From: Chiloscyllium plagiosum
Lineage: Eukaryota
Direction: 5' to 3'
NCBI RefSeq assembly: GCF_004010195.1
Contig: NC_057719.1
Location: 15,158,974-15,222,973 of the forward strand
DNA: 64,000 nt
Positions within the stretch are counted from its first letter, which is position 1. Each line of letters starts with the position of its first letter. The translations under genes were made by a program, and so were the position numbers. Shown here in pieces: positions 7,748 through 63,500 of the stretch. The notes under the pieces were generated by a model. The model was not told where the DNA came from, ran no database searches, and saw only the letters and a program-made list of their open reading frames with translations.

Positions 7748-7858
7748 TGTGCGTTTTTGTGCATTCCTGAAGAAGGGCTTATGCCCGAAACGTCGATTCT
7801 CCTGCTCCTTGGATGCTGCTTGACCTGCTGCGCTTTTCCAGCAACCCCTTTTTTCAGC
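7748..7858 (+). mobile_element. 111-bp Penelope-type 3'-terminal mini-element with hammerhead motif and 14-bp TSD
   Basis: Flanked by ACATTTTTGTTAAA at 7734-7747 and 7859-7872; body matches the PLE 3' end at 16381-16470. Confidence 0.85.
7763..7798 (+). ncRNA. Minimal type I hammerhead ribozyme motif (family A)
   Basis: CUGAAGA-A-GGGC UUAU GCCC-GAAA-CGUC; predicted cleavage after C7794. Confidence 0.75.
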
Positions 7859-8049
7859 ACATTTTTGTTAAACAAAGCTATTAAAGGATATGAGCCAAAG
7901 ACAGGTATATGTTCGGCCACAGATGAACCATGATCTCATTGAAAGGTGGAACAGGCTCGAGGGGGGCTGAATGACCTATTCCTGTCCCTGTGTTCTCTGG
8001 AATATCTGCACTAAGCACAGTAATAAGTGTACCTTAAATGTGAAATAAG

Positions 8050-8325
8050 TTTACGGCCAGAGGGCATAATCTCAGAATAAGTGGTCACTTATTTAAAACA
8101 GTGATAAGGAGGAATTTCTTCTCTCAGAGGCAATGAATCTGTGGAATTCTTTACGACAAAGGGATGTTGAGGTTGGGTCATACACAGTTTTTTAATTGTT
8201 AAGCGAATCGAGGGTTATGGAGAAAAGGCAGGAAAGTGGAGTTGAGGATCTGCCATGGTCTCATTGAAAGGCAGAACAAACTTTAAGATTGAATGGCCTA
8301 TGTCTGCTCCTACCTCTTATGGTCG
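8050..8325 (+). mobile_element. CR1 3' fragment
   Basis: RGHNLRI..., RRNFFSQR, 3'UTR GAATGGCCTA...CTGCTCCTA. Confidence 0.75.
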
Positions 8326-8924
8326 TGTCATTTTGTGTTTGTCTACAGTTTTACTTTCAAGCGCTAACCTTGTTTCCTTTGGTATTGTTGTTCAGCTGCT
8401 GAGGTTCACCGCCCTACACTTCTCTGTCCTCATCATTCCCTCCATGTGGAGCATGCCCTGTTCCTGGAGTTTGGATTTATGAGACAATTCCATGAACTGT
8501 GCACCTTCCTATTTCCAGTGCTACATCTATGATCAAGCAAATGAGCTCTGCTTGGTATTGTCCAGCACCATAATTCCAATCCATTGACAAAGCAGCTATG
8601 ATCAGAAACTGACTGTGAGAGAAATGGTGCTAATGTATCCATATCCTGCCATGCTATGGTAGGGTATTATAGTGGTCCAACTCTCTGAACAACAGAACTA
8701 AAATTTCTAAATTTGGTTTTCAGCATTATATTCCAGCTCCATAGTAACAGGAAGAGATTGGCCTAAATTAGAGATTATTATAAATTTGATTCTCACTGTG
8801 TGTAATTGTGTTAATTTTCTTTTGCTCCCTTCAATCTAGTGAACTTACTAGCTAACCCAAAACTCACCTGATGTTTTGTTACCTGAGGCAGCTATCAGTT
8901 TTACCCTCTCCTCCCTGTCCCCTC

Positions 8925-8993
8925 AGTTTGATTCCTGTCATCCTAATACTCAATAGAGTTTGATTCCTGTCATCCTAATACTCAATAGAGTTT
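8925..8993. repeat. Perfect 32-bp tandem duplication
   Basis: AGTTTGATTCCTGTCATCCTAATACTCAATAG x2 followed by AGTTT. Confidence 0.95.
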
Positions 8994-9084
8994 TCCCCAA
9001 TCATTAGGCATCTGCTCTAGCATCCTCAAACACAACTGGAAAACAGATAGTACTGTCACAACCAATCCCTGGGCGAGGGCAAGT

Positions 9085-9839
9085 TGTTATAGTCCTGGCG
9101 AGGAGAGAAGAATTGGCTCCCCTTCTTTATTCGATCTCACTCCTTCACCTTTGTTGATGCAGCAAGGTCAACTTAAAACAGGGATCCCTCCCCTTATGGA
9201 TATCTATCCCAGTTCCAATGTACTTATGTTTTAACAGGAACCAGTTTAGCCAGGCCTTCTTGGATTAAGAAAAGAGTGAGTTAATTATTTAGTGAGATGA
9301 GAGCATAAGTAATGAATTGCAACATACACAGCAATAAGAAACAAGGAAAGGTACACAGATAGTAAAAAGATTTTCAAATCAATCTTTGGTCTGTCCGGCC
9401 AGAGGAGATGGTGAATCGTTTAAGCCGTTAAGTTGGGCGGTTTCAGCAACGCTGATCTTGGCAATCAAACCATTGGTCTGGAGATTCTTGGGTCTGCAAG
9501 TTAGCCAAAGGGAGTTGTCCTGTTTACGTTCCATAGTGACTTTGCTGATTAGTGACTTGCTTCCAGCAGGGGGGTAGAGGGAGAAAGAGAGAGAAAGAAA
9601 CAGACAGAAAGAGAGAGAGCCTTTTTCTTTTACCTGAAAACACAGGTGCACCTTTCAGCTTCACAGCACACACAGAAACTCCATAGCCCCCGAACACCAA
9701 ACTAGCACACACATTTCTAGGTTTGTTTTTTTTTAACCACTTCTCTTGTGTATTCCTAGAAGGGGAGAACATAAACTTGTCTTTATTCCAAATTGTTTCC
9801 TTTTTATCTCTCTGCATGTTCACAACCTGGGACATAACA
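9085..9839. mobile_element. Probable solo LTR
   Basis: Starts TGTTATAGTCCTGG and ends CCTGGGACATAACA (imperfect terminal inverted repeat, TG...CA); 755 bp; no clear TSD. Confidence 0.5.
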
Positions 9840-11647: not shown

Positions 11648-11978
11648 AGTGTGGAGCAGCACAGTGGCTCAGTGGTTAGCACTGTTCCTCACAGCACCAG
11701 GGACTCGGGTTCGATTCCAACCTCGGGCAACTGTCTGTGTGAAGTTTGCACATTCTCTCTGTTGGTGAGAGGGTTTCCTTTGGGTGCTCCAGTTTCCCCC
11801 CACAGTCCAAAGATGTGCAGATTAAATGAATTGGCTGTGTTAACTTGCTCATAGTGTTCAGGGATGTGTAGGTTAGTCAGTAGGGTAGGGGAATGGGTCT
11901 GGATAGACTACTCGTCTGAGGGTCGGTGTGAACTCGTTGGGCCGAAAGACCTGTTTTCACACTGTAGTGATTCTAAGA
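11648..11978 (+). mobile_element. HE1-type V-SINE, diverged
   Basis: CAGTGGCTCAGTGGTTAGCACTG, GGTTCGATTCC, V-domain, CR1-like tail. Confidence 0.88.
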
Positions 11979-12477
11979 TTCCTGAGATTTGCTCTGCATG
12001 GGGCATGGAGAAGGAGATTTGGAATCCCTCCTTACAGGTAGTCATCTGGAGGTGCTGCTGGGTGGAGTGAAGCAAATGCAGGACTTCCTGTTCCCCAGTC
12101 CCAGCAGTGGATGCCATGACAATGGATCATGCTAATCTGATCTGGAGTTACAATCCAGGTCAGTGAGGTTTCAGCCATCTGGAGAAATGCCCCATGCCTT
12201 GCGAAGAAGAACAAAGTCCTTAGAGTTCATAGAGTCATACAGCATAAACACAGGCTCTTCTGCCCACCATGTCTATGCTGACCAACAAACACCAAACTGC
12301 ACTAATCCCATGAACCACTCTTGGTCCTACTAAAGCCTACTATTCCCTGGCATTTTAACTAATCAGCCAGGTGTTTCTTAAATCTTGCAAAAGTACCTCT
12401 GTCCACCAACCTCTCAGGCAGCAGCTTCCACATATCTACCACCCTCTGGGTGCAAAAAGCTTTCCTCAGATCTCATT

Positions 12478-13172
12478 GGAGAAAGTGAGGACTGCAGATG
12501 CTGGAGATAATAGCTGAAAAATGTGTTGCTGGAAAAGCACAGCAGGTCAGGCAGCATCCAAGGAGCAGGAGAATTGACGTTTCGGGCATAAGCCCTTCTT
12601 CAGGAATGAGGAGGGTGTGCCAAGCAGGCTAAGATAAAAGGTAGGGAGGAGGGACTTGGGGGAGGGGCGTTGGGAATGCGAGAGGTGAAAGGAGGTTAAG
12701 GTGAGNNNNNNNNNNNNNNNNNNNNNNNNNNNNNNNNNNNNNNNNNNNNNNNNNNNNNNNNNNNNNNNNNNNNNNNNNNNNNNNNNNNNNNNNNNNNNNN
12801 NNNNNNNNNNNNNNNNNNNNNNNNNNNNNNNNNNNNNNNNNNNNNNNNNNNNNNNNNNNNNNNNNNNNNNNNNNNNNNNNNNNNNNNNNNNNNNNNNNNT
12901 GGAGGGAAGTGAGGGGGAGGTGTGGGCGCAAGTTTTGCATTTCTTGCGGTTGCAGGGGAAGGTGCTGGGAGTGGAGGTTGGGTTGGTGGGGGGTGTGGAC
13001 CTGACGAGGGAGTTCCGGAGGGAGTGGTCTTTCCGGAACGCTGATAGGGGAGGGGAGGGAAATATATCCTTGGTGGTGGAGTCTGTTTGGAGGTGGCAGA
13101 AATCACCAAGGATGATACGATGTATCTGGAGGTTGGTGGGATGGTAGGTGAGGACCAATGGGGTTCTGTCCT
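12478..13172 (-). mobile_element. Penelope-like element 3' part (contains the assembly gap)
   Basis: LVLTYHPTNLQIHRII...IFPSPPLSAFRKDHSLRNSLVRS...FPCNRKKCKTC; hammerhead motif at 12572-12607 (-). Confidence 0.88.
12706..12899. other. Assembly gap (194 N)
   Basis: Run of n. Confidence 1.
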
Positions 13173-13429
13173 GATCTCCTTGGGAGAGAGATTCTCACAA
13201 TCTATTCTGTCTGTGCCTCTCATAATTTTGAATATCTCAATTATATCCTCCCGCACCCCTCCCCTAACCCGCCCCAGCCTCCTCTGCTCCAAGAAAAACA
13301 AACCCAACCTTTGCAATCCCTCCTTTCATCCCAGGCAAAATTCTGGTGAATCTCCGCTGCACCCTGTTCAGCGTAGTCCTTCTCCACTCTGCCAGTATAA
13401 GTGTCACCATCTTCTATCTGATCCCTACT

Positions 13430-13780: not shown

Positions 13781-15534
13781 ACTCACTCTATCTCTGCCAC
13801 TGTAAGCCTCACGGTCTCCCACTCTTGCTGTCACATACAACATCATCCCTCAGTCACTATCACACACACACAAGCCCTAACACAACTAATACTGCAGCAT
13901 TATGGCAGTACAATTTGAGGTGCAGCACTGAAGTGCAGAAGGGTCCCATAAGTAAATTGGAGATGTGCCTGGAGGGTTCTTAAAGGCTGGCATGATCTGG
14001 ATGCCAAAGTCCTTAGACATGGGGTGTGCCTGTGGAAATACCCCAAGTTATTTGTAACCTCTCCAGTGTCCAACATTGAAGTCCTTCAGGGCAAGCAGTG
14101 AGCTGAATCCGCAAGTACTTGCTCTGATTTCCAAGTTGGCATTTCTCCACATCTAACCTTTTCGGCACCTTCGGTAAGATAAGAAAGAGAATATTAAAGA
14201 GACAATTTGGGCTGTTAACAAGGAATTTAACAAGCTATAGTCCCCTTTTAGTGGCAACTTGCTGCTGCCTATTGAGCAGTTCACATCATCAATTGTCAAA
14301 AGCATAAAGGATGGCTCAAATTGCTGACAAAGATGATATAGGCTTTGCTGACACCTCATCCAATTCTGCCAAACATTTCACTATCTCAGACCACGATAAG
14401 ATTCTTTATGGAACTTTATGGAATTAGAAAGATTTAAACCATGAAGAAGCCCCCGCTAATTCTAGCTCCAATGATATACATCACTTCATTTATCTAAATA
14501 TAGTAGTCAAACACAACACAAATGTCTAAATATGGTCATATTCAACCACAACAAAAAAATGTAACAAAGAGGATATGAATAAAAGCAACAAGGACACTTA
14601 CAAAGGGTTTAAGTTACAAAGCCATAGTCACAGAATGTTTTTGCATTGAAGAAATTATACAATTTGAAATCCTTGGTCTTCTTGTGCTGTTATGGACTGT
14701 TCACAGTCTGCTCAGTTAAAGAAACAGATGAACAGTCCATCTTCCGTAATTACACCGGCACCACTCCCCACCTCTTCCTCCGCTACGTTGATGACTGCAT
14801 TGGCACCACCTCATGCTCCCGCGAGGAGGTTGAGCAATTCATCAACTCCACCAACACATTCCACCCTGACCTTAAATTTACCTGGACCATCTCTGACACC
14901 TCCCTCCCCTTCCTGGACCTCTCCATCTCCATCAGTGACGACCGACTTGACACTGACATTTTCTACAAACCCACCGACTCCCACAGCTACCTGGATTACA
15001 CCTCTTCCCACCCTACCTCTTGCAAAAATGCCATCCCGTATTCCCAATCCCTCCGCCTCCGCCGTATCTGCTCCCAGGAGCGGTTCCACCATAGAACACA
15101 CCAGATGGCCACCTTCTTTAGAGACCGCAATTTCCCCTCCCACGTGGTTAAAGATGCCCTCCAACGCATCTCATCCACATCCCGCACCTCCGCCCTCAGA
15201 CCCCACCCCTCCAACCGTATCAAGGACAGAACCCCCCTGGTGCTCACCTTCCACCCTACCAACCTTTGCACAAACCAAATCATCCGCCGACATTTCTGCC
15301 ACCTCCAAACGGACCCCACCATCAGGGATATATTTCCCTCCCCTCCCCTTTCCACCTTCCGCAAAATCCATTCCCTCAGTGACTACCTGATCAGGTCCAC
15401 GCCCCCCAACAACCCACCCTCCCATCCTGGCACCTTCCCCTGCCACTGCAGGAATTGTAAAACCTGTGCTCACAGCTCCTCCCTCACCTCCATCCAAGGC
15501 CCTAAAGGAGCCTTCCACATCCATCAAAGTTGAC

Positions 15535-15860
15535 GGGCGGCACGGTGGCACAGTGGTTAGCACTGCTGCCTCACAGCGCCAGAGACCTGGGTTCAATTCC
15601 CGCCTCAGGCGACTCTCTGTGTGGAGTTTGCACATTCTCCCCGTGTCTGCGTGGGTTTCCTCCGGGTGCTCCGGTTTCCTCCCACAATCCAAAAATGTGC
15701 AGGTTAGGTGAATTGACCATGCTAAATTGTCCGTAGTGTTAGGTGAAGAGGTAAATGTAGGAGTATGGGTCTGGGTGCTATACGCTTCGGCGGGTCGGTG
15801 TGGACTTGTTGGGCCGAAGGGCCTGTTTCCACACTGTAAGTAATCCAATCTAATCTAATC
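15535..15860 (+). mobile_element. HE1-type V-SINE, full length, inserted in the PLE ORF
   Basis: GGGCGGCACGGTGGCACAG...(TAATC)n. Confidence 0.93.
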
Positions 15861-16380
15861 CACCAATATCATTTATTGCATCCGTTGCTCCCGATGCGGT
15901 CTCCTCTACATTGGGGAGACTGGACGCCTCCAAGCAGAGCGTTTTAGGGAACATCTCTGGGACACCAGACCAATTAACCCCACTATCCTGTGGCCCAACA
16001 TTTCAACTCCCCCTTCCACTCTGCCGTGGACATGGAGGTCCTGGGCCTCCTTCACCGCCACTTCCGCACCACCCGACGCCAGGAGGAAGAACGCCTCATC
16101 TTCCGCCTCGGAACACTTCAACCCCAGGTCATCAATGTGGACTTCACCAGTTTCCTCATTTCCCCTCCCCGACCTCACCCCAGTTCCAAACGTCCAGCTC
16201 AGCACTGTCCCCATGACCTGTCCTACCTGTCTGTCTTCCTTTCCACCTATCCTGTCCATCCTCCTCTCTGACCTATCAACTCCATCCCCACCCCCATTCA
16301 CCTATTGTACTCTATGCTACTTTCTCCCCACCCCCACCGTCCTCTCATTTATCTCTCCACCCTTCAGGCACTCTGCCTGT

Positions 16381-16416
16381 ATTCCTGATGAAGGGCTTTT
16401 GCCCGAAACGTCGATT
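16381..16416 (+). ncRNA. Minimal hammerhead ribozyme motif in the PLE 3' terminus
   Basis: CUGAUGA-A-GGGC UUUU GCCC-GAAA-CGUC; predicted cleavage after C16412. Confidence 0.78.
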
Positions 16417-16894
16417 TCCCTGCTCCTCGGATGCTGTCTGAACTGCTGTGCTTTTCCAGCACCATTCTAATCCAGAATCTGGTTTCCAGCATCTGCAGTC
16501 ATTGTTTTTAACTCAGTTAAGGAAAACCTTCTATTGGATTAAGCAGCATGATACTATGCCTTCAACTTGCCATGTGGGCTGCAGGGGAGAGCACTTCCTG
16601 GTGATATTTTCTGTGTTTTATTAGCATATCACACAATCAGACTTAACAATTAGGACAACATTCAAAACATTCAATGTTGAAGGCTTGAAACAATACTGAA
16701 ATACAACCAAAGGAGAGAGATGGGAAAAGAAAGAGTTATAAATTTATAATCGATTTATAAATGACACTCCTAGAATAGGCAGAGAATTTTGTCCATTAAT
16801 TCCTTCATCCTTTAATGCTACAGTTGTTAACAAACATGTATCTATCTCAGATTTAAAGTTAAGCAAAGATATTAAGCAAAGATATTAAGGGATA

Positions 16895-19922: not shown

Positions 19923-20665
19923 CAATCAGGCTCAGAAGAGAGGAGAGATCCAGAGGGGGAGAATCATCTGCGGGGAGCTCTCAGTTGCACACAGGGGCCT
20001 GAGAAAGGGGCATCACTCCACCATCAAGCCAAAATCCTGCCTGGTTTCATTCAGCAGGCGAGACACTTGGCATTGGTTTGCCTGCTGTGGGTATCGCTGC
20101 AGCGAGAGTGGGCATGTACAGGATGGTGGGATGATACATCTCCACTGCAATAGGACTATTTTTACACTCTAGGAGGGAGAGTTGTTGGGCAGGAGGGTGC
20201 TTGATAGTGGTTGGATATAGTACTTTAGTCTCGAGATCAGAAAGAACTATAAGAAACTAATGGTAAGCTATTAAGTGAATAAAATGTGACACTAGGAGCT
20301 CGGCTAATAAGCTTAAAATGCAAGTATCCAGAACTTTAGAATGACAAGGCAGCAAATGTTAAAGCCTGATCCTTAAAGAAGTTGGGAATAATCACATCAG
20401 GACATCATGTTTGAGCAAAGTAGCTTCAGAATAGATAATCATAACTGTTTGCACAAATTCAAATTCTTCAATTCATTATGGAAATTGAGCCATTGGTTGG
20501 TCTTATAACATGTACTGTTGCCAAAGGCAAAGTGAGACGGAGGAAGGAGAATAGTTTTAAAAGGTTTTTTTTGGAGGACTTGAGAGAAAGAATTTGAAGA
20601 TGAAAGCCAGCTTCCCTTCTCTGGTTAAGCTGATAATTCAGTTCTTAATTAGATGGAACAAAGAC

Positions 20666-20770
20666 ATGACTGATGAAGGGTCACTGGATTGGAAATATTA
20701 ATTCTGTTTTTCTCTCAACAGATGCTGTCAGATCTTTCTCCTGCATGCTCTTGGTTTTGAATCAGATTTT
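20666..20770 (+). mobile_element. PLE-type terminal fragment with degenerate hammerhead (family B)
   Basis: CTGATGAAGGGTCACTGGATTGGAAATATTAATTCTG...ACAGATGCTG; homologous to 25225-25345 (-). Confidence 0.55.
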
Positions 20771-20789
20771 GAGTTGTGTTTATTACACA

Positions 20790-21022: not shown

Positions 21023-22847
21023 ATTAGATGGATTAATAGACTGAAGCTAAATCATTTTAATTTAAAGAGTGCAATTAAAAATGACAACATCTCTTTTAAA
21101 TTCTCTAGCAATAAACTATAATATTAAACATTATGACAATTTACTGGTTCCAATGTTGTAATGCTTTCAGCAAGGCATTAATTCAATAAATTTTACAGCA
21201 GGTGGCATGTTTTCTGGCATATACTTTATTTTTGATGACAGTAAATTAATTGTTTAGCATCCAGGAGCAACACGTCCAACATTCCTGAACTTCAGCTGTG
21301 GGTAGGAAGGAGCTTTTTTCACTTAACTCCACCCCTTTTTACATAGGCATCTATTTTCCTGACTACATCAGACTATGTTTGTGGGATTTAATGGCCTTTC
21401 CTTGCTTGCAAAACAACCTAATTTTCCTGAATCTCTTAATATCCCTTCTGTGCATTTTCCAATATAAAAGCCCATACCCTTAATGCAATGCAAAAACAAC
21501 GGCTTTTTTCTGTTTGGGCAGACCAATGACATTTAAGGGAATCAGCACATAGCAAGCAGCTGACTTCTTTCAAGAGACTCCCTCGTCTGCTCAAAGATGT
21601 GCAGCAGGACTCCAGGGATAAATCCATCCCATTCCTCAGCAAAATTGTTTGGCCTCCACTGATACAGAATGTTTTCAATGTGAGGGAACTCTTATCGGCC
21701 CGTTATCATTGTTGTATCATCAGTTACCATTGTTGCAAAATCATGCTCCCACACAGATAGAAATGTTTCATATTTGTCCCTAAACAAAATATGCCTATGA
21801 GCAAGGCTTGTAAAGAGAACATTTTTAACATTTGACTGAATGCAGGCACTGCAGTAGTTTGAATTCATAAAGAGAAGAATGCAATAAAGTTTGATTTGAA
21901 ATAAAATGCTGGACATGGAATTCCAGTAAATTAACAGTGAAAAGAGAAAAACAGATACATTTAGCATTGTTTCTGCTGACAATTTGCAAAAATTGCCATT
22001 TGAAAAAAAAATCAGTTTGTATTGTGTTATTTTGCAAAACACTTTGAACAATTGGGTGTGAAAATGAATGGAATTCACCAAAATTAATGTGATAATTCAT
22101 TCTGGGTTCACTGATTCGACTGGTGTAAACGTACTCACAAAAAGTGGCCTTCTCAAGGTTTCTACCAAGGTTGGTAATCACATGTCCATGGAGCCAGCTT
22201 TGGCTCCAAAAGAAATTATTGTTGGCTGACTTACTGCCAAGATCCAAAGAGAAGACATTTGGAATCAGCCCAAGGGCAGAAAAAAAAACCTTAGCTCCCG
22301 AGCCAAGATCCTCTTTGTTTCAAAATCAAACCACACAAGTTGCTCAAGGACCACTCCCTGGATACCGCTCCTCATCAACAGGTGTCAAACATGAAGTGAC
22401 ACAACCACTGAGACTGGTAGTACAGAACTAGAAACCAATACACATCAGTCAATTAGACATGCTTTATGTTCCAAATCCAGCTTGCTTTTATGCAAGAAGA
22501 ACAGCTGAGACTATAACACTGTGGATAATTTAATTGAAAGCATTAAATGTCACTGACTTCAAAAGAATCACATAGTTGATTGCTGAGCCAGTGCTGGTAG
22601 TTCTACAATCTGAAACAATGTTCTCTTAGGGTTCTGTGCTTTCTAGAAGACTTAACTACACCTAAAAAAAATTATTTTTTAAAAACTTTTTTTATTTGGT
22701 TTACTAAATACTAAAACAAATGACAGGGTCTTACATCTTATTCTGCTTTATAATATAAAAACATTTCCTTAAAAAAAAATTCCCTTCCCATAATTATTCT
22801 TTAGAAATGTCTACAGTTGAGAAAAGAATTGAGACTGAGAGTCATAT

Positions 22848-23132
22848 CAGCACTGTCCCCATGACTTGTCCGGACTTGTCCTACCTGCCTATCTCCTTTT
22901 CCACCTATCCACTCCACCCTCTCCTCCCTGACCTATCACCTTCATCCCCTCCCCCACTCACCTATTGTACTCTATGCTACTTTCTCCCATCCCCATCCTC
23001 CTCTAGCTTATCTCTCCACGCTTCAGGCTCACTGCCTTTATTCCTGATGAAGGGCTTTTGCCTGAAACGTCAATTTCAAAGCTCCTTGGATGCTGCCTGA
23101 ACTGCTGTGCTCTTCCAGCACCACTAATCCAA
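22848..23132 (+). mobile_element. PLE 3' fragment with hammerhead (core 23044-23071)
   Basis: Homologous to 16200-16475; CUGAUGA-A-GGGC UUUU GCCU-GAAA-CGUC. Confidence 0.85.
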
Positions 23133-25204: not shown

Positions 25205-26585
25205 CAAAGACCAAAAAAACACAAAGATGCTGGAGATCCAAAATAAAAACAGAAATTGCTGGAAACATTCAGCAGGTCTGGCAACATCTGTAGAGAGAAA
25301 GCAGAGTTCACACATTGAGTTCAGTGACTCTTCATCAGAACTGATAGCAACTGATATGTGTGAAATGTATGTGGAAGACCAAGTGTGGTTTGGGGGGAAG
25401 GGTTTCAGTAGTTAGATGAAGATGGGGGAGGGGGGAAGAGATGAAAGGGATAGGTAAATGAGGTGTTTTTAATAGTAGGTCAGGACAGAAGAGAAGCTGA
25501 CTATGTGATAATAAGAGCTGAGGATTGTAGGTTACTACTTCTGTCACATCCGGTGGGATACCACGATCGGACTTCATCAGCATTCCACAGGGACCATTCC
25601 TTCTGGGACACTCTGGTACATTTGTCCTCCATTCCCCACCCACCATCACGGCACCTTGCCATGCAATCATAAAAGGTGTAACACTTGCCCATTTACCTTC
25701 TCCCTCCTCACTATCTGAGGCTGCAGACACACCTTCCAGGTGCAGCAATGATTTATCCACACTTCACTCAGTCTAGTTTACTGTATTTGCTGTTCACAGT
25801 GTGGTCTCCTTTACATTAATGACCCCGGGCCTACCACTTCAACATCCCACTGTGTTCCCACATTGTCATTTCTATCTCGAGCCTGTCTCAGTGTTCCAGT
25901 GAGCCTCACTGCAAGCTCGAAGAACAGCATCTCATTTTCCACTTGGATATCCTGCAGCCTCTAGGGACTCAAATAGGAGTTCAATAATTTTAGATGGAGA
26001 AAGTGAGGACTGCAGATGCTGGAGATCAGCGTAGAGAATGTGGTGCTGCAAAACCACAGCAGGTTAGGCAGCATCAGAGGAGCAGGAGAATTGATGATGC
26101 GGGCATAAGCCCTTTGATTCTTCTGCTCCTCGGATGCCGTCTGACCTGCTGTGTTTTTCCAGCACCACACTCTCGACTTCAATACTTTTAGAGCTTGATT
26201 TCATCCTTTCATATTTTTACCTGATTCCTGAAGAAGGGCTTATGCCTGAAACGTCGATACTCCTGTCCCTTGGATGCTGCCTGACCTGCTGCGCTTTTCC
26301 AGCAACACATTTTTCAGCTCTGATCTCCAGCATCTGCAGTCCTCACTTTCTCCATATGTTTACTTCCACCCCAGACTTGGTCCTGACATGACATGGATTG
26401 TTTTCAAGTCAGCCTTCCCAATCTCTCCAACTCTTAGCTCTCATTATCACTTATTCAGCTTCTCTTCTGCCCTGGCACACTATCAATAATCCCCTTCCTT
26501 GCCTACCCCTTTCATCTCTCCCTCTGGGCTCCATCTCCACCTATCCACTCAATATTCCAAGTGTGGCCACATTAGCATTTTGTAT
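25205..26585 (+). mobile_element. Old PLE (family B): inverted terminal segment (25205-~25500, minus) and decayed linker/GIY-YIG; interrupted at 25994-26355
   Basis: AFHRDHSFWDTLV, GTLPCNHKRCNTCPF, LVYCICCSQCGLLYI, KLEEQHLIFHL; CUGAUGA core at 25332-25338 (-). Confidence 0.75.
25994..26355. mobile_element. Composite of family-A PLE termini bounded by a perfect 36-bp inverted repeat
   Basis: ATGGAGAAAGTGAGGACTGCAGATGCTGGAGATCAG and its exact reverse complement; hammerhead core 26228-26255 (+). Confidence 0.82.
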
Positions 26586-28779: not shown

Positions 28780-30190
28780 AATCAAAGTGTCATAGAGATA
28801 TACAACACGGAAATAGACCCTTCAGTCCAACTCGTCCATGCTGTTCAGATATCCTACATAAATAGGATAGAGATAAAAATAGGATATAAATAAGTATAGT
28901 CCCGTTTGCCAGCATTTGGTCCATATCCCTCTAAACCCTTCCTATTCATATATATATGCAGATGCCTTTTAAATGTTGCAATTGTACCAGCCTCCACCAC
29001 TTCCTCTGGCAGCTCATTCTATACTCATACTACCCTCTGCGTGAAAAAGTTACCTCTTCAGTCCCTTTTAAATCTTTCCCCTCTCACCCTAAACCTATGC
29101 CCTCTAGTTTGGACTCCTACAACTTAAGGAAAAGGCCTTGTCTATTTACCCTATCCATGCCCCTCATGATTTCACAAATCTCTATAAAGTCACCACTCAG
29201 CCTCTGACACTCCAGGGAAAATAGCCCCAGTCTATTCAGCCCCTCCCTATAGCTCAAATTCTCCAACCCTAGCAACATCCTTGTAAATCTTTTCTGAATC
29301 CTTCCATGTTTCGCAACATCCTTCCGATAGGAAGGAGAACAGGATTGCATGCAATATTCCTAAAGTGGCCTAATCAATGTCATGTACAGCCGCAACATGA
29401 CTTCCCAACTCCTGTACTCAGTGCTCTGACCAATAAAGGAAAGCATACCAAACACCTTCTTCACTATCATATATACCTGCAACTCCACTTTTAAGGACCT
29501 ATGAACCTGCACTCCAAGGTCTCTTTGTTCGGCAACACTCCTCAGGACCTTATCATTGAATATATAAATCCTGCCCTGATTTGCCTTTCCAAAATGCAGC
29601 ACTTCATATTTATCTATATTAAACTCCATCTGCCACTCCTCAGCCCATTGGCCTATCTGATCAAGATCCCATTGTACATTGAGGCAACTTCTTCGCTGTC
29701 CACTACACCTCCAATTTTGCTATCATCTGCAAACTTACTATCCATTCCTCCTAAGTTCATAACCCAATCATTAATATAAATGACGAAAAGCAGGGCACCC
29801 AGCACCGATCCTTGTGGCACAACACTGGTCACAGGCCTCCAGTCTGAAAAGCAACCTTCTACCACCACCTTCTATCTTTGAGCCAGCTCTTTATCCAAAT
29901 GGCTAGTTCTCCCTGTATTCCATGAGAATACCAGTCTACCATGAGGAACCTTGTCAAACGCTTTACTGAAGTCCATATAGATCACATCCACTAAACACTG
30001 GTCACAGGCCTCCAGTCTGAAAAGCAACCTTCTACCACCACCTTCTATCTTTGAGCCAGCTCTTTATCCAAATGGCTAGTTCTCCCTGTATTCGATGAGA
30101 ATACCAGTCTACCATGAGGAACCTTGTCAAACGCCTTACTGAAGTCCATATAGATCACATCCACTACTCTCCTGTCATCAATCCTCACCA
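28780..30190 (-). mobile_element. CR1 LINE RT and 3' end with an internal 173-bp tandem duplication
   Basis: VDVIYMDFSKAFDKVPHGRL, VPQGSVLGALLFVIYIND, KFADDSK; duplicated unit 29821-29993 / 29994-30166. Confidence 0.92.
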
Positions 30191-30807: not shown

Positions 30808-30927
30808 GGGAAAAATTGAGGACTGCAGATGCTGAAGATCAGAGTCAAAGTGGAAAAGCACAGCAGGTCAGGTAGCATCCGAAGGGCAGGAGAGTCAAGG
30901 TTTCAGGCGTAAGCCCTTCATCAGGAT
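30808..30927 (-). mobile_element. PLE-type mini-element with degenerate hammerhead
   Basis: Reverse complement CTGATGAAGGGCTTACGCCTGAAACC followed by the family-A tail. Confidence 0.75.
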
Positions 30928-31067
30928 GGCAGGGATAGTCAGTCAAGGCAAGAAAATGAGAGGTCTGAAGGGTTAATTATAGAATTCCGATCATGCAGAA
31001 GGAGGTTATTCAGCCTGCAGTGACCCTCCAAAGAACACCCCACTCAGACCCACTGCCCACCACATAT

Positions 31068-31387
31068 TAGATTAGATTAGATTACATTACAGTGTGGAAA
31101 CAGGCCCTTCGGCCCAACAAGTCCACACCGACCCGCCGAAGCGAAACCCACCCATACCCCTACATTTACCCCTTACCTAACACTACGGGCAATTTAGCAT
31201 AGCCAATTCACCTGACCCTGCACATCTTTTGTGACTGTGGGAGGAAACCGGAGCACCCGGAGGAAACCCACGCAGACACTGGGAGAACGTGCAAACTCCA
31301 CACAGTCAGTCGCCTGAGGCGGGAATTGAACCCGGGTCTCAGGCGCTGTGAGGCAGCAGTGCTAACTACTGTGCCACCGTGCCACCC
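31068..31387 (-). mobile_element. Young HE1 V-SINE nested in an older HE1-like fragment
   Basis: Full length; ATAT on both flanks. Confidence 0.92.
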
Positions 31388-33961: not shown

Positions 33962-34607
33962 TTCAGTGACCACCTGCCATCTTTCAGGACAATATGAAAC
34001 ATCTGTCAAAGATTTTCAGATGGATGTAACACTATAATTTCCACTTCTCAAGAGCAGTGTTTTCAAGCACACCCGGTATCAGATTTTCGACCCCAAGTCT
34101 CCTTGATATTATATGGGCAAATCTGCTGCCATCCAAGACACCAGCACAAACCAATGTATGAAAAGTTATAATCACCTCAACACTACCAGACCAAAAACAA
34201 TGTCCATGAAATGATGACTTAAACCAAGGTAGAGATAGTAGCTTAGAGGTCATGTCATAAGACTGATAATCCAGAATGCAGGCTAATATTCACGGGACTT
34301 GGGTTCAAATCACACCATGTGGTAGATGATGAAATTTGAACATAAAGAGTTAGCTCAATCGTAACCACTGTCCTAAAATCCCATTTGGTTCACCAATATT
34401 ATTTAAAGAAGTAAATTTGCCATCCTTACCCAGTCTGGTCTACATGTGACTCCAAACCCATAGCAATGTGGTTGATTCTCAACAGCCCTTTGGAAATTAT
34501 TCAGTGACCACCTGCCATCTTTCAGGACAACATGAAACATCTGTCAAAGGTTTTCAGATGGACGTAGCACTACAATTTCCACTTCTCAAGAGCAGTGCTT
34601 TCAGGCA
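33962..34607 (+). repeat. 108-bp direct repeat (33962-34069 and 34500-34607)
   Basis: Ungapped alignment, 7 mismatches. Confidence 0.95.
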
Positions 34608-37600: not shown

Positions 37601-37965
37601 GGTGGACAGTGAGAGCCTTTTTCTTGGGATGGTGATGGCTAGCACAGGGGGCCATATGTTTAAACTGACGAGTGATAGATATAGGACAGACGTCAGAGGT
37701 AGGTTCTTTACTCAGAGGGTGTGAAATGCCTTACCTGCAACAGTCATAGATTTGCCAACTTTAAGGGCATTTAAATGGTCATTGGATAAATATATGCATG
37801 ATAATGGAATAGTGTAGATTAGATGGGTTTCAGATCGGTTTCACAGGTGGGTGCAACATTGAGGGCCATTGGGCTTGTACTGCGCTGTAACGTTCTATGT
37901 TCTATGAAATTAGGGATGGACAATAAATTCTTGTCTAACTGAATGATGCCCACATCCAATAGAAT
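34230..37965 (+). mobile_element. SINE family Z split by the large CR1 insertion (SINE parts ~34230-34499 and 37913-37965)
   Basis: Core ends at GAAATTA 34493-34499; tail resumes after GAAATTA 37906-37912. Confidence 0.8.
34608..37905 (+). mobile_element. Long CR1 LINE (decayed): ORF1 SGNH-esterase C-part, ORF2 APE and RT, 3'UTR
   Basis: VVHIGTNN...GLHLNQRGTNILG (esterase); VVAISETW, VVMGDFNFPNIDW, GDSDHN (APE); RSCLTNLIE, KSVDDTK (RT); many stops and frameshifts; (GTTCTAT)n tail. Confidence 0.95.
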
Positions 37966-45862: not shown

Positions 45863-46358
45863 ATTCAAGATCTTTAGACCTAGGCTGCTGAAGGAAATAG
45901 CACCAAACTATGACCAAAGGTGGAGTGATTAAAACTGATGATATGTTTTTGTTTGTTATGGGGCAAGAGCTTCAATGGTAAAGTCAATATTTGTTCATTA
46001 TTCTAGTTGCCCTCGAAAATGTGTTGGTGAGTCGGATGCTCAAACTGCTGCAGTCCACTGGCTTGTACCCACAATGCTATTGCAATAGGAGTTCAGAGAA
46101 TTTGACCCAATGGCAAAGAAACAACAACAATGTACAGCGAAATTGTGATGCCTCAAATTCAGATGGCCCAGAACTCTGGTTGTTTTTAAATCATCAGCCA
46201 TTCCCCTAGCAGACAGCAAATTCCATATGTGGAATGATAAGCCAAAATTCTATACTGGGAACTCAGGACTTGCAAGGTGAATATTTTAGCACAATTTGAC
46301 AAGCAGGCATTCTTTCCAAAAGGCAAAAGAATGAGATTGCCATTCTATTCTGATGTTT

Positions 46359-46967
46359 GATTAGATTAGATTCCCTACAGTATGGAAACAGGCCCTTCGG
46401 CCCAACGAGTCCACACCAACCCTCCGAAGAGTAACCCACCCAGACCCATTCCCCATATTTACCCCTGACTAATGCACCTAACTCAATGGGCAATTTAGCA
46501 TGACCAATCCACCTAACCTGCACATCTTTGGACTGTGGGAGAAAACTGGAACACCCGGAGGAAACCAACACAGACACAGGGAGAACGTGCAAACTCCGTA
46601 TAGACAGTTGGCCAAGGCTGGAATTGAACCTGGGTCCCTTGCACTGTGAGGCAGCAGTACTAACCACCGAGCCACCCATTAGATTTGATTAGATTCCCTA
46701 CAGTGTGGAAACAGGCCCTTCGGCCCAACAAGTCCACACCAACCCTCCAAAGGATAACCCATCTGTCCTCTGACCAATGCAACCAACAACTATGGACAAC
46801 CTAACCTGCACATCTTTGGAATGTGGGAGGAAACTGGAGCAACCGGAGGAAACCCACGCAGACACGGGGAGAATGTGCAAACTCCACACAGACAGTTGCC
46901 CAAGGCTAGAATTGAACCTGGGACCCTGGCGCTGTGAGGCAGCAGTGCTAACCACTTTGCCTTCCCG
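46359..46967 (-). mobile_element. Two tandem HE1 V-SINEs (46359-46677 and ~46680-46967)
   Basis: Both have head, V-domain and tail. Confidence 0.9.
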
Positions 46968-50215: not shown

Positions 50216-50253
50216 CCTAGAAGACTGAGTTAGCTGAGTTAGGTAGATTGGAA

Positions 50254-50387
50254 AATCCTGAAACAAGGGCTTTTGCCTGAAACATCGATTTTCCTGCTCC
50301 TTGGATGGTGCCTGACCTGCTGTGCTTTTCAAGCACCACTCTAATCTTGACTCTGATTTCCAGCATCTGCAGTCCTCACTTTTGCCA
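50254..50387 (+). mobile_element. PLE-type mini-element with degenerate hammerhead
   Basis: CCTGAAACAAGGGCTTTTGCCTGAAACATCG followed by the family-A tail. Confidence 0.78.
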
Positions 50388-51916: not shown

Positions 51917-52989
51917 GCATCTGTGGAATGGAAGCAGCAAATCTGACTTTGTCCATATCAGAATGTGTGTGGACCTCACAGCATCCAATAGAATTTCTGA
52001 GCTTTAATGCTCTCTTTTCCTAACTTAATTTGCACAATACATTTATAACATAACAAGTGAAACTGCTATATTTTCTTCCAAGAAATATCAAGCACTAATG
52101 CAATCATATTTACAAATCTGTCACAATTACATTATGCAAATCCACAGATTGGTCTATGAACTGGAAATCTATATTGCTTGTATATAGCACCCTTCCAAGT
52201 TTTCAGCATTCAAGTTTAAAATAGCAAGCAGCAAAAATTTAGCTTAAAAAAAATCAATGATTAGTTTATTATAAAATTATTGATGGAATTTATTAAGTTA
52301 AATAAAAAAATGTATTAAATAAAATCCAGGTATAAAATGGAAAAGTACATACAGATAAAAGATACTTACAAAGATGAGAATAAGATCATTTTGGGATTAT
52401 TGCAATAAAAAGCAAAAGAACTGCACATGCTGGAAATCAGAAACAAAATGAGAAATTGCTGGAAATTGCTGAACTTTTCCAGCAATTTCTGATTCTGATT
52501 TTGGTATCATTCCAGTTCTGCTACTTGTTTGCAAATTCTCTTTTTATGATGGTGAAATTTCAAATCAGAACTCATTAGTTTTGACAGCTACTGATATGGA
52601 GTTGTTGGAGTTTGTTTGTATGGGTGGACTGTTACTTCACTGGGATAGTATGCTTGAAATTAAGCCCCAGTATTCCCAGAGTAGTGTTAAAACATTAAAG
52701 ATTTTATTACAGCACACAAAATTCCTCAATTTACCTGTCTCTTTAGACCCAGGTTAATAGAAAACACAAGTCAGGTGGCTATACTTAACAAGATGACTGT
52801 TTACGATGAATAAGTGGACTCTAGATACAAGTAACAAATATGAATAGTTAAAATTCCAATCCTTTTTTAAAAACTTCCCCTACAAACATAGTTACAGACA
52901 GAAAAACATTGGTGTCATGGATGGAGGTAAAAGAAACTAATAAGGCAGTTTAATGGTAGTTATCTTAGCTGAGATTATGCTGTTGTTGA

Positions 52990-54474
52990 GGCAAAAGTGA
53001 GGACTGCAGATAGGGTCGTAGAGTCATAGAGATGTACAGCATGGAAACAGACCCTTCGGTCCAACCCATCCATGCCAACCAGATATCCCAACCTAATCTA
53101 GTCCCACCTGCCAGCACCTGGCCCATATCCCTCCAAACCCTTCCTATTCATATACATTGTACCAGCCTCCACCACTTCCTCTGGCAGCTCATTCCATACA
53201 CGTACCACTCTGTGTGTGAAAAGGTTGCCCCTGAGGCCTCTTTTATATCTTTCCCCTCTCACCCTAAACCTATGCCCTCTAGTTCTGGACTCCCCGACCC
53301 CAGGGAAAAGACTTTGTCTATTTATCCTATCCATGCCCCTCATAATTTTGTAAACCTTTATAAGGTCACCCCTCAGCCTCCGGTGCTCCAGGGTAAACAG
53401 CCCCAGCCTGTTCAGCCACTCCATATAGCTCAAATCCTCCATCCCTGGCAACATCCTTGTAAATCTTTTCTGAACCCTTTCAAGTTTCACAACATCAAAT
53501 AGGAAGGAGGCCAGAATTACACGCAATATTCCAACAATGGCCTAACCAAAGTCCTGTACAGCCTCAACATGACCTCCCAAGTCCTGTACTCAATACTCTG
53601 ACCAATAAAAGAAAGGATACCAAATGCCTTCTTTACTATCCTATCTACCTGCGACTCCACTTTGAAGGAGCTATGGACCTGCACTTCAATGTCTCTTTGT
53701 TCAGCAACTCTCCCTTGGACCTTACCATTAAGTGTATAAGTACTGCTAAGATTTGCTTTCCCAAAATGCAACACCTCGCATTTATCGGAATTAAACTCCA
53801 TCTGCCACTTCTCAGCTCATTGGCCCACCTGGTCAAGATCCTGTTGTACTCTGAGGTAACCCTCTTGGCTGTCCACTAGATCTCCAATTTTGGTGTCATC
53901 TGCAAACTTACTAACTGTACCTCTTATGCTTGCATCCAAATCATTTATGTAAATGACAAAAAGTAGAGGACTCAGCACCGATCCATGTGACACTCCACTG
54001 GTCACAGGCTTCCAGTCTGAAAAACAACCCTCCACCACCACCACCTTCTGTCTTCTACCTTTGAACCTGTTCTGTATCCAAATGGCTAGTTCTCCCTGTA
54101 TTCAGTGTGATCTAACCTTGCTAATCAGTCTCCCATGGGGAACCTTGTTGAACGCTTTATATAGTCCATATAGATCACATCTACCACTCTGCCCTCATCA
54201 ATCTTCTTTGTAACTTCTTCAAAAAACTCAATCAAGTTTGTGAGACATGATTTCCCACACACAAAGCCATGTTGACTGTCCCTAATCAGTCCTTGCTTTT
54301 CCAAATACATGCACATCCTGTCCCTCAGGATTTCCTCCAACACCTTGTTCACAACTGACGTCAGGCTCATTGGTCTATATGCTGGAGATTAGAGTGGGGC
54401 TGGAAAAGCACAGCAGGTCAGGCAGCATCCAAGGAGCAGGAAAATCAACGTTTCGGGCAGGAGCCCTTCATCAG
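52990..54474 (-). mobile_element. PLE-type mini-element (parts 52990-53011 and ~54379-54474) split by CR1
   Basis: GTGAGGACTGCAGAT | GCTGGAGATTAG contiguous across the CR1; hammerhead CUGAUGA-A-GGGC UCCU GCCC-GAAA-CGUU at 54443-54474 (-). Confidence 0.82.
53015..54378 (-). mobile_element. CR1 LINE RT and 3' end
   Basis: RDSQHGFVCGKSCLTNLIEFFE, KFADDTK, LYRTLVRPLLEYCV, RTRGH. Confidence 0.94.
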
Positions 54475-54867
54475 CAATTATGGTTTTGTTTGCCAGGACT
54501 TATTGTTTTTCAATCTCTCTTCTCCAAGTAAGTTTCACTTCCTTGCAGGAGGCACAGAGCAACTGGTTTATAAACGATGAAATCTCTAACTTATTGGCTA
54601 TAAGCAACAGTTTACATTAATCAGTGAAAGGCAATAACTGGCTTTCCTAAGGCTTCAAGTATTTTCCACCTCCACTTCTGGAGATCCAAAGGCTTCTGGC
54701 AATATTATTCACATCCTTAGGTTGTTCAGCTACCCAGGAGCCAACCACACTGTTGTTGACAGACAAGTTGGCTTTGCCATCCACAACTGGTCACCACTTC
54801 ACTAAAGGATACCACTTTGTACCCAACACCAGCCCACCTGCGACAAACCTCCAACATTGGTTTAATC

Positions 54868-55313: not shown

Positions 55314-55343
<30 letters not shown>
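55313..55343. repeat. (GA)n microsatellite
   Basis: Direct reading. Confidence 0.9.
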
Positions 55344-55344
<1 letters not shown>

Positions 55345-58440: not shown

Positions 58441-58678
58441 ATCTCTCCCTCCTTCCCTCCCTCCCTCCCTCCATCAATCCATCCATCCAACTCCTCATTT
58501 AAGTTTCTGTTGCCTTACATTTGACTACTGCACCACATTCCTGGCTGGCTCCCAAGTTAAGCATTAAAATATTCCAAGCCTTGTGGTCCATCTTCTAACT
58601 CTCACCAATTTCCATTTAATTAGACCACCCACGTGCTCCTACATGGTTAGCTCCTTGTTAACTAACACTTGATTTTCA

Positions 58679-58880
58679 TGATTTGGAGGTGCCGCTGTTG
58701 GACTGGGGTGTACAAAGTTAAAAATCTCGCAACACCAGGTGATAGTCCAACAGGTTTATTAGCAGCACTGGCTTTCAGAGAGCTGCTCCTTCACAACCAT
58801 CTGATGAAGGAGCAGCGCTCAGAAAGCTAGTGCTTCTAAATAAACCTGTTGGACAATAACCTGGTGTCGTGTGATTTTTA
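58679..58880. mobile_element. 202-bp palindromic PLE-type mini-element with hammerhead (family C) and 12-bp TSD
   Basis: TSD ACTTGATTTTCA at 58667-58678 and 58881-58892; arms 58715-58793 and 58805-58884. Confidence 0.85.
58798..58832 (+). ncRNA. Minimal hammerhead ribozyme motif (family C)
   Basis: CAU-CUGAUGA-A-GGAGC AGC GCUCA-GAAA-GCUA-GUG; one mismatch at the base of stem II. Confidence 0.6.
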
Positions 58881-59299
58881 ACTTGATTTTCAAATTCTCA
58901 TCCTTTATTTTCATGCTATTATCCTTCCCTATTTTGGTAATCTTGTCCAACCCTTAGAGATATCTCCAATTTTGGCCTCTTGAGCATCCTCATATGTAAG
59001 CAAAATACTATTTTAAACACATCTCTTTGATCAATTGCCCCTAATATTTCCTTAGGTAACCCAAATTAAATTTTATTTGATATTGCTCCATCAAGTTCTT
59101 TGGAACAGTTTATTACTTTGAATGCAAGTTGTTCCAGTTGTTGTTGTAGCAAGTGCAATTACTTTTGCATAGCACGTTCCTACAAATAAGAAATGACCAA
59201 GTTACCTGGTTTGAGGTATTAGCTGAGACACAAATGTTAGCGAAGACATTGTGAAAATTTCCCCCATCAAACAGTGGAGTGGCACCTTTTAAACATCAG

Positions 59300-59465
59300 C
59301 TCTGGCTTAGTTGGTGGCACTTTTGCCTGAGTCAGAAGTTTGTGGGTTCTAGTCCCATTACTGGATTTGAGCACTAAATCAAAACTGATATTCCAGTGCA
59401 GTTCTGCCGTGCTTGCTATACTGTTGGAGGTGCTGTCTTTTGGATGAGGTGCTAAACTGAGGCAT
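59300..59465 (+). mobile_element. DeuSINE (SacSINE1-like) 5' part
   Basis: tRNA head, then CCAGTGCAG...TGTTGGAGGTGCTGTCTTTTGGATGAGGTGCTAAACTGAGGC (Deu-like domain). Confidence 0.7.
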
Positions 59466-59474
59466 TTCCTGCTA

Positions 59475-60180
59475 TCTTGAATGCGGAATACAGGGTTAAT
59501 GGTAGGGTTCTTAGTCAGGTGGAGGAACAGAGGGATCTTGGGGTCTATGTACATAGATCTTTGAAGGTTGCCACTCAGGTGGATAGAGTTTGTAAGAAGG
59601 CCTATGGAGTATTATCGTTCATTAGCAGAGGGATTGAATTCAACAGTCGTGAATTGATGTTGCAACTGTACAGGACTTTGGTTAGGTCACATTTGGAGTA
59701 CTGTGTGCAGTTCTGGTCGCCTCACTTTAGGAAAGATGTGGAAGCTTTGGAGAGGGTGCAGAGAAGGTTTACCAGGATGTTGCCTGGAATGGAGAATAGG
59801 TCGTACGAGGATAGGTTGATAGTGCTAGGCCTTTTCTCGTTGGAACGGCGAAGGATAAGGGGTGACTTGATAGAGGTTTATAAGATGATCAGAGGAATAG
59901 ATAGAGTAGACAGTCAGAAACTTTTTCCCCGGGTGCAACAGAGTGTTACAAGGGGACATAAATTTAAGGTGAAGGGTGGAAGGTATAGGGGAGATGTCAG
60001 GGTGGGTTCTTTACCCAGAGAGTGGTGGGGGCATGGAATGCGCTGCCTGTGGGAGTGGTAGAGTCAGAATCTTTGGTGACCTTTAAGCGGCAATGGATGG
60101 GTGCTTAAGCTAGGACAAATGTTCGGCACAACATCGTGGGCCGAAGGGCCTGTTCTGTGCTGTATTGTTCTATGTTCTAT
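59475..60180 (+). mobile_element. Young CR1 3' end
   Basis: Open for ~175 codons: QRDLGVYVHRSLKVATQV...LYRTLVRSHLEYCVQFWSP...TRGHKFKV; (GTTCTAT)n tail. Confidence 0.93.
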
Positions 60181-61915: not shown

Positions 61916-62853
61916 CACCCTGGCTCTCTCAGCCTAGATTGTCCTCAGTGAGGATTAAATTTGCATTGTAACTTCATAAATCTGTTGTACTGAATTTCAC
62001 ATTGAACTAAGCAAAATCGATTCATAATACTGACGGGATGGGTGTGGGAAAGGGAAGAGGAGAGCTGCAGTTACTAAATGGCAAAGGACCATGTGATAGC
62101 GAGGTTGAGAGATCCATCTTGCAGGAAGGGGTTTGAGAAGGAGGGGTGAAGGGGGTTTAAATGAGGTGTTAGAGGAAGATGTTCTGATTTCAGGGTGAGG
62201 AAGGAGATCAGAAATTTGAAGGGGGATTAGATGCCTGTGTTGGGGAGGAAGATCGGAGGCTGTATAATACAGGCAAGAAAGGCGATTGGAAGATTGTGGT
62301 ATGATCAGATGTCTCAGGGATAAGGCAGAGTGGAAAAGTACAGTGTGGTCCAAACATGGAGGCACCTCAGCACGCACACACAATCCAAATTGTGTGTGAA
62401 GCCAGTGATCATCTGATACCAGTAAGCCCTCACCTTGGTGAAACTAGTAAAAATGCCTGGTCCTGAAAATCTAGTCAACAAGAGTTAAAAGCTGAAAATC
62501 TGAAGCACATTGAGGCTGGCAACCTCTCCGATTTAAAGTTTCAACCTTTCTGTCTAGAGTATTAGTCATCCACCCACTTCCAACTTCAGTTACAGCTACA
62601 AGCGATTTTGAGAGAGGTTGGTTTAGCTCAGGAATTGAATTCCTCACCTGCCACTGCTTAAAATAATATTTTTCCCTTCTCCCCAAAGTGCAGTTTGTTC
62701 AACTAAAAGCAAAGGCTTATTTGTCACCTAATGATGGTTCCTATGACTAAAACTATGCTTTTGGGATGTTTGAAAGACAGGAATGTATATGCAACTTAAA
62801 GGTGAAGGTGTCACCCATGCCTCAGCTGGCAGCACTCATCACTGAACTACAAT

Positions 62854-63015
62854 AGGAGAAGGTGCAGACTACAGATGCTGTAGATCAGAGTGGAGAGTGT
62901 GGTGTTGGAAAAGCACAGCAGGTCAGGCAGCATCCGAGGAGCAGGAGAATCGACGTTTCAGGCAAGAGCCTTCATCAGGATTCATGTACTTTTCCAACAC
63001 CACACCCTTGACCCT
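62854..63015 (-). mobile_element. PLE-type mini-element with hammerhead (62948-62982) and a short inverted tail copy
   Basis: Reverse complement CTGATGAAGGCTCTTGCCTGAAACGTCG; CTTTTCCAACACCACAC is inverted relative to ~62896-62913. Confidence 0.8.
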
Positions 63016-63074
63016 GAACTACAATATCCCTATTTTGGGTTATGAATGCATAACAGCCAAAGCTCCAGAGCCAT

Positions 63075-63260
63075 GCAATGTCCGAGGTGCTGTCTTTTGA
63101 ATGAGATGTTAAGTCCAGGATCCCATCTGCCTGATCAGATCAATGTAAAAGACTGCATAACACTTTTTCATAGAATAATAGAGGAAGCATCCCTGCTGTG
63201 TTACTAAACTTCAATAACATCACATAATGAAGAAACAGATGCTCTGGTTATAGTCAACTT
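63075..63260 (+). mobile_element. DeuSINE Deu-domain remnant
   Basis: GAGGTGCTGTCTTTTGAATGAGATGTTAAG...CCCATCTGCC...GTAAAAGA. Confidence 0.6.
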
Positions 63261-63379
63261 TGTAATTTAAAAAAATGTTGGTGCAATACAGATATATTAG
63301 TCTTTAATGCTTGACACAATTGAAGCAGAACTCAAATGCAAAACAACAGTCAAAGCATTTCATGAAGTTCTATAGCAAA

Positions 63380-63500
63380 AGCCAAATACTGTGGAAATCT
63401 GAATTGAAATCAGAAAATGCTGAGACACCCAGCAGGTTTGATAATGTCTGTGGAGACAGAAACAAAGTTAATGTTTCAGGTCTGTAACTATTCTTGAGAG
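63380..63500 (-). mobile_element. Family-B PLE terminal fragment, decayed
   Basis: Homologous to 25225-25345. Confidence 0.5.

Follow-up and report, generated by a model that had tools for sequence, protein, structure and literature searches.

We analysed a 64,000-nucleotide stretch of the Chiloscyllium plagiosum genome (assembly GCF_004010195.1, contig NC_057719.1, positions 15,158,974 to 15,222,973), hereafter the window, numbered from its first letter. It contains 14 hammerhead-ribozyme motifs, seven on each strand, which an earlier note made from the sequence alone had assigned to three families of Penelope-like elements (PLEs). Each of the 14 was found again at or near its given coordinates with a core scan, a display of the context and profiles derived from the window. 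A strict descriptor yielded 7 matches, compared to a mean of 0.07 and a maximum of 2 in 100 dinucleotide shuffles. The motifs are, very probably, minimal type I hammerheads of the PLE terminal module, which consists of the hammerhead and a tail of about 65-100 nt, and the copies seen here are likely dead, 5′-truncated insertions decaying neutrally. Minimal hammerheads of PLEs are of an already known kind, and other vertebrates have been described with them in the same arrangement (Cervera and de la Peña 2014, PMC4209133; this and the other papers cited are taken at what their available sections describe).

Ten elements belong to family A. Three of them are long, one keeps about 50 nt of upstream sequence, five begin 2-7 nt upstream of C3 and one breaks inside the core; none stands alone with its start at the cut site. 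Past the cut site, they end at about +64 (7767) or +98 (several copies). The seven family A cores listed first in the earlier note stand exactly where it had placed them, and its three decayed copies are present, at positions refined to 26114−, 30924− and 50258+. The element at 14730..16512 (+) contains the C-terminal part of a reverse transcriptase (RT) with its YVDD motif, a CX4CxxC linker, a frameshifted GIY-YIG domain interrupted at 15535-15858 by a dispersed repeat of ~320 bp, a 3′ untranslated region (UTR), a canonical hammerhead from 16385 (predicted cut after 16412) and a tail. A 5′-truncated PLE at 12476..13185 (−) is made of a CX4CxxC linker remnant (12904-13185), an assembly gap (12706-12899), the 3′ UTR, a hammerhead from 12603 and the tail; its position 1.1 is an A, and the first pair of stem I is broken. 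At 22847..23131 (+), a 3′ UTR precedes a decayed hammerhead (core from 23044, with U11.1 and A1.1) whose tail stops at a LINE-like repeat. The short insert at 7748..7858 (+) is canonical, with its core from 7767, a predicted cut after 7794 and a 14-bp target-site duplication (TSD, 7734-7747 and 7859-7872). Also short are 26221..26352 (+), with a core from 26228, a start 7 nt upstream of C3 and an 11-bp TSD with one mismatch, read by eye, and 54365..54478 (−), with a core from 54474, U17 and a 2.1-1.1 mismatch, for which a TSD was looked for and none found. Decayed copies lie at 30809..30975 (−; core from 30924, stem III ACCU, ~50 nt of UTR-like sequence upstream, approximate 5′ limit) and 50249..50387 (+; core from 50258, 12-bp TSD matching at 10 of 12 positions by eye). 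The insert at 62855..63013 (−; core from 62978) has a short inverted tail arm upstream and a 13-bp TSD. Finally, 25995..26177 (−) is a head-to-head insert with a half-deleted hammerhead at 26114 and an inverted tail arm starting at 26116, about cut site +1; it has a 15-bp TSD with one mismatch and is nested in a family B element. Independent of each other, this insert and that at 26221..26352 (together 25995-26352) are 44 nt apart, and both have entered the 3′ part of an older PLE remnant of family B. Since the TSDs reveal two separate inserts, we rejected the idea of a retrozyme unit running from cut site to cut site at 26116-26255.

Family B was represented, as announced by the earlier note, by three broken sites, at 20670+, 25338− and 63480−. 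The first is a decayed hammerhead with its tail (20665..20773, +). The second belongs to an inverted PLE remnant at 25212..26552, whose minus arm holds the tail, the dead hammerhead and the UTR, and whose plus arm holds a remnant of the CX4CxxC linker and endonuclease (25614-25990) and a UTR (26425-26552) homologous to 25404-25530. The third is a copy without its first half-core (63378..63501, −). The single family C element is a palindromic insert at 58679..58880. Its plus arm contains the hammerhead from 58801 that had been reported, in which an A at 11.1 breaks the G10.1-C11.1 pair; its minus arm, truncated inside the core at 58796−, had been missed. A 36-nt extension is present on the left arm only (58679-58714), and the whole is flanked by a 12-bp TSD (58667-58678 and 58881-58892). 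A family B-like inverted tail pair with no hammerhead, at 52401..52505, was also absent from the earlier list. The cut positions predicted in the earlier note (7794, 16412 and 58829) are correctly placed.

The RT, linker and GIY-YIG remnants lie upstream and in the sense of the 16385 hammerhead (tblastn, 14730-16169). A linker remnant also lies upstream and in the sense of 12603, and another in the arm inverted relative to the family B copy 25338, so that the CX4CxxC linker is present in 3 of 3 coding remnants. The Pfam match to GIY-YIG (E 0.0017) was under the curated cut-off. The five best protein matches were from Chiloscyllium (85-89% identity) and from Rhincodon and Stegostoma (65-68%), and further matches were RT proteins of ~900 aa and at most about 1,000 aa, part of which have a GIY-YIG domain. 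Taken by themselves, these matches would point to a carpet shark as the likely host. Because these remnants adjoin the hammerheads, families A and B can be linked to PLEs, and the view that PLE termini carry minimal type I hammerheads with a loopless palindromic stem III holds here, in agreement with PMC4209133. A CX2-5CxxC linker between RT and endonuclease defines the Neptune/Nematis type (PMC8557442), and the Penelope/Poseidon clade in the strict sense has no Zn-finger-like linker. By this linker definition alone, the present elements would belong with Neptune/Nematis, and not with Penelope/Poseidon.

The insertions have the architecture of PLEs as well. TSDs of 11-15 bp were recognised at 6 short inserts, in AT-rich targets (three were read by eye), and inverted arms are present at 26114, 50258, 62978, 25338, 58801 and 52.4 kb. 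In family C, the palindrome with its one-arm extension inside a 12-bp TSD corresponds to the published PLE signature of an inverted copy and a one-sided tail. It is this architecture (TSD, inverted arms, one-sided 36-nt extension) that suggests a PLE origin for family C.

The state of the cores was tabulated for 11 copies, 10 of which have a GAAA box; damage is plain to see in the remaining 3 of the 14. A full core, the palindrome, G10.1-C11.1 and C2.1-G1.1 are found together only in 7767 and 16385. Eight of the 14 listed copies, seven of family A and one of family C, keep both boxes and the palindrome and have a run of 3 or more stem II pairs (G-U counted). In all 10 tabulated copies with a GAAA box, the extra base between positions 9 and 10.1 is an A. 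The 10.1-11.1 pair is of Watson-Crick type in 4 of these 10, G-U in 4 (as in 26228, closed by a G10.1-U11.1 wobble) and broken in 2, which is consistent with CpG decay from G-C. The loopless palindrome 15.1-16.1 is present in 9 of 10 (ACGU in seven, AGCU and AUAU in one each), the exception being 30924. Stem II is shortened and stem I has 5 bp in 62978, and the first stem I pair is missing in 12603, 23044 and 54474. The GAAA box is lost in 25338−, and the first half-core is absent from 63480− and 26114−.

Families A and B are homologous through their tail, a family B profile finding A copies down to E 4e-7. When families are compared by eye, the claimed covariation is seen to be real (in stem II, 10.3 from G-C to A-U and 10.4 from C-G to G-C or U-A; in stem III, ACGU to AGCU), with the reservation that it is based on one C copy and two decayed B copies. 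In a pairing count, 85.5% of the positions were paired, a value reached by 9 of 500 shuffles, and the covariation score was reached by 8 of 500; this is weak, the family C row being one column out of register. The Rfam search proposed in the earlier note did not recover the motifs: no hammerhead family was among the 10 matches at E<=10, all of which were under the gathering score. Two of these matches, mir-1791 and MIR8001, were discarded as they correspond to inverted PLE arms. Pattern scans of viral and metagenome contigs gave 0 matches.

Decay is of the CpG type. Within family A, the most frequent change turns C11.1, which stands in a CpG, into U (5 of 9 copies); this is decay and not compensation. 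The variants listed for the reads described below include CpG variants at G12, C15.2 and G16.2, with G12 changed to A in 161 of 1236 reads of the RNA run X21. The mean pairwise identity of the family A copies is 87%.

Reads were mapped on the reference 12440-12705 at 88% likeness, giving 2797 reads from the RNA run X21 (about 2% of the run) and 123,793 for the DNA contigs of run X1. X21 reads are poly(A) single-cell fragments, in which cleaved 5′ ends are poorly visible. The main 3′ end was sharp, at 12476-12478, with 612 loose ends at 12478 among the 2797 X21 reads. No depth step was found at the cut site (bin ratios 0.82-0.89, a weak test with such reads), nor any pile-up of read starts or ends along the mapped stretch. 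Read orientation was both ways, at about 60:40. Across the 5′ edge of the core, depth showed falls of 0.58 and then 0.33. This edge is genomic, because the DNA contigs drop there too. A pyrimidine tract followed by AG, resembling a splice acceptor, was seen 17-26 nt upstream of the core at 12603− and 16385+. Splicing was rejected as a cause of the 5′ edge: the acceptor-like sites lie 17-26 nt upstream, and no RNA splice joint was present among the 15 joints listed out of 66.

Several points weigh against copies that are simply dead and neutrally decaying PLE ends. The fall in depth at the 5′ edge is inflated by subfamily divergence upstream of the core. The window contains no full-length or tandem element, and no coding remnant for family C. 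In the 9 family A copies compared (the half-deleted 26114 was left out), 11 core positions differ in 1 of 99 cells, versus 28 of 405 non-CpG tail cells (Fisher p 0.027), a difference no longer significant once stem II is included (p 0.13). The earlier note had expected, were the motifs not ribozymes, a core no better conserved than its flanks; in family A the core is the better kept of the two. The signal is modest. It fits selection on master elements, and selection after insertion is compatible with it too.

Where the inserts break was examined through the joints found in contigs and reads. Among the same 15 listed joints, four were opposite-strand joints 2-5 nt upstream of C3, with their partner near the cut site: 12572-12607 (5 contigs, 2 reads), 12572-12608 (3 contigs), 12573-12605 (2 contigs, 1 read) and 12565-12607 (5 contigs). 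The first three connect the two strands of stem I in register or one-two positions off, which the other listed opposite-strand joints do not. In the window itself, three copies have upstream bases that reverse-complement those directly after the cut site, over the first 8 bases at 50258, the first 19 (with 3 mismatches) at 26114 and the first 5 at 62978. The joints of family C and of the 52.4 kb pair are located elsewhere than in stem I, and joint counts were small overall. DNA contigs also contained joints of 12606/12607 to 12576, which connect the 5′ edge of the hammerhead and position 17 across 2-5 letters; they represent either tandemly duplicated 32-36-nt cores, which would make a natural adjacent dimer, or inversions located at the cut site. 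In 9 X1 contigs the whole 127-nt unit (12476-12604) was joined head to tail, and pieces of the last 30 nt were repeated, which shows that partial tandems exist elsewhere in the genome.

Family A/B tails retain, in 8 of 10 cases (e.g. 16428-16492), a 7-8-bp helix that encloses about 50 nt immediately before the main 3′ end. It is possibly a protein-binding or RT-start element. Covariation gave no support to it, with one two-sided change, and a conserved reading frame in the tail was dismissed, as subfamily indels are not multiples of three.

How such copies arise can be judged by PAc, a Poseidon PLE of Anolis carolinensis (Frangieh et al. 2024, PMC11167929). Its RT was described as starting at internal sites beyond the hammerhead, on a template that is not cleaved; cleavage is helped by protein, and RNA ends were not seen at the cut site. 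The pattern in the window fits PAc. By analogy, the endonuclease of the element would nick AT-rich DNA, where TSDs are observed. Reverse transcription would begin within the RNA, about 64 or 98 nt past the cut site, at the positions where the copies end, and the uncleaved template would be copied through the hammerhead, the core being retained in the copies. Synthesis would often end at the 5′ strand of stem I, where the 5′ ends cluster, and a second, inverted arm is sometimes added. To judge from the literature, only transcripts of active tandem masters would give the ribozyme itself a function, in dimeric form or together with the element protein, and the dispersed copies would be passengers in transcripts of either orientation. 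Candidates for the stop at stem I are a transcription start, RT drop-off, or a fold-back of the cDNA on the stem I complement. Under the last of these, RT would read through the uncleaved ribozyme as far as the 5′ strand of stem I, and the freshly made cDNA would then fold onto the complement of the other stem I strand and prime the inverted arm. The hammerhead would in that case shape insertions without cutting, stem I setting both the 5′ breakpoint and the inversion point. We propose this tentatively, and consider it rather improbable at present.

Alternatively, the 110-140-bp units could form a non-autonomous family of their own, resembling SINEs or retrozymes, with transcription starting a little upstream of the hammerhead and PLE proteins mobilising the units in trans. 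The start of 5 of 10 family A copies 2-7 nt upstream of C3, the 3′ end common to most, and the head-to-tail joint of the whole unit would all suit such a family, and PLE-derived retrozymes were reported in one chondrichthyan (Li et al. 2026, bioRxiv 10.64898/2026.07.22.740005). The short copies nevertheless fall in several subfamilies, two of which are also seen as long PLE remnants in the window, their 5′ ends vary, with extra bases or inverted arms, and neither a stand-alone cut-site-to-cut-site unit nor a tandem unit was found in the window. We consider this origin quite unlikely.

The earlier note had inferred that transcripts crossing the locus carry several half-ribozymes which pair through their palindromic stem III and cleave or ligate. 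The two canonical copies, 7767+ and 16385+, do share a strand, family A sequence is present in the RNA run, and weak in vitro cleavage is published for S. mansoni constructs made as dimers or trimers (PMC4209133). The inference is not supported, however, on several counts. Only same-strand copies share a transcript, so that at most half of the listed copies are in sense on any one, and the two canonical copies are separated by 8.6 kb. Their stem I consists of 2 bp, a U-U mismatch and 1 bp. The ACGU/ACGU pairing is predicted at only −1.7 kcal/mol, the best predicted dimer of two 36-mers uses a different palindrome, across the cut site, and ACGU of family A is unable to pair with AGCU of family C. 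Antisense copies on the same transcript (12476, 25995, 30809; 9 pairs) are predicted to form duplexes of 90-113 bp at −145 to −189 kcal/mol (duplexfold, intramolecular competition ignored), and these would outcompete a 4-bp stem III. Dimers, too, have little activity according to the literature (PMC4209133, PMC6765202), and the reads showed neither pile-up nor cut-site step, within the weakness of that test. A transcription unit was not demonstrated, nor was any host exon detected: a Pfam scan of the non-repeat frames with 62 aa or more (128 of 138, the 10 that overlap PLE remnants being left out) revealed only a LINE esterase and endonuclease, and exons in shorter frames would escape it. That dispersed half-ribozymes act in this way in a long host transcript is very unlikely, and a network cutting host RNAs is unlikely as well. 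Least credible of all is the domestication of one copy by the host as a regulatory ribozyme. That 7767 and 16385 retain all core features speaks for it, but both share 88-94% identity with other copies, so that youth alone seems to account for their state, and no host gene context was found.

The remainder of the window contains other repeats. A long LINE remnant at 34568-37721, which we take to be of CR1 type, encodes a GDSL esterase (Pfam E 2.9e-8) and an apurinic endonuclease (E 1.4e-7). The ~320-bp dispersed repeat, presumably an HE1-like SINE, has about 12 full or partial copies (2154-2471, 7276-7555, 11656-11976, 15535-15858, 31067-31387, 46356-46961 and others). A 173-bp direct duplication with 99% identity, at 29821-30166 within a LINE fragment, is either a recent event or an assembly artefact.

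Compared to the minimal hammerheads of the pLTRs of metazoan PLEs (PMC4209133), the motifs are alike in being of type I, in lacking a helix III loop, in their palindromic 15.2-16.2, in the extra base between 9 and 10.1 and, in 4 of the 10 copies tabulated, in a Watson-Crick G10.1-C11.1 pair. Several families per genome, mostly solo truncated copies and close opposite-strand pairs are shared as well; motif class, solo truncated copies and opposite-strand pairs are thus already described. Stems differ, stem II having here 4-5 bp and stem I 2-5 bp, and the available sections of PMC4209133 do not mention sharks. The density of about 14 per 64 kb, decayed copies included, is not the same measure as the descriptor hits given there, about 4,000 in coelacanth and 9,000 in Xenopus. 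With PAc, the elements share copies ending about 60-100 nt past the cut site, an optional tail and AT-rich targets; they differ by their CX4CxxC linker, and by a clustering of 5′ ends at stem I that the available sections of PMC11167929 do not describe. Endonuclease-positive (EN+) PLEs (Craig et al. 2021, PMC8557442; Arkhipova et al. 2013, PMC3846280) show the same 5′ truncation, adjacent inverted copy, 30-40-bp tail at one end and short TSDs. For palindromes at inverted junctions, self-priming was proposed (PMC3846280) without reference to the ribozyme. Several junctions lie here within the stem I strands, whereas the sections of PMC8557442 and PMC3846280 available relate no junction to the ribozyme. 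Non-LTR retrozymes (Li et al. 2026) are likewise non-coding, PLE-derived and provided with a type I hammerhead, and are defined in the part available by at least 2 tandem units, each with a complete hammerhead, of which the window has none. Our literature search, which did not extend to supplements and subscription papers, found no earlier shark-specific description of PLE hammerheads, and no prior description associating snap-back with Penelope.

As matters stand, a motif already known is now also documented for very abundant PLE families of a shark genome, which alters the general picture little. If new cDNA does fold back on stem I and prime the inverted arm, the hammerhead would have a non-catalytic role in EN+ PLEs, and hammerheads with a long artificial helix I would be a by-product. 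This would join two unexplained features of PLEs, the hammerhead and the head-to-head inversion, and would be testable in the in vitro PAc system.

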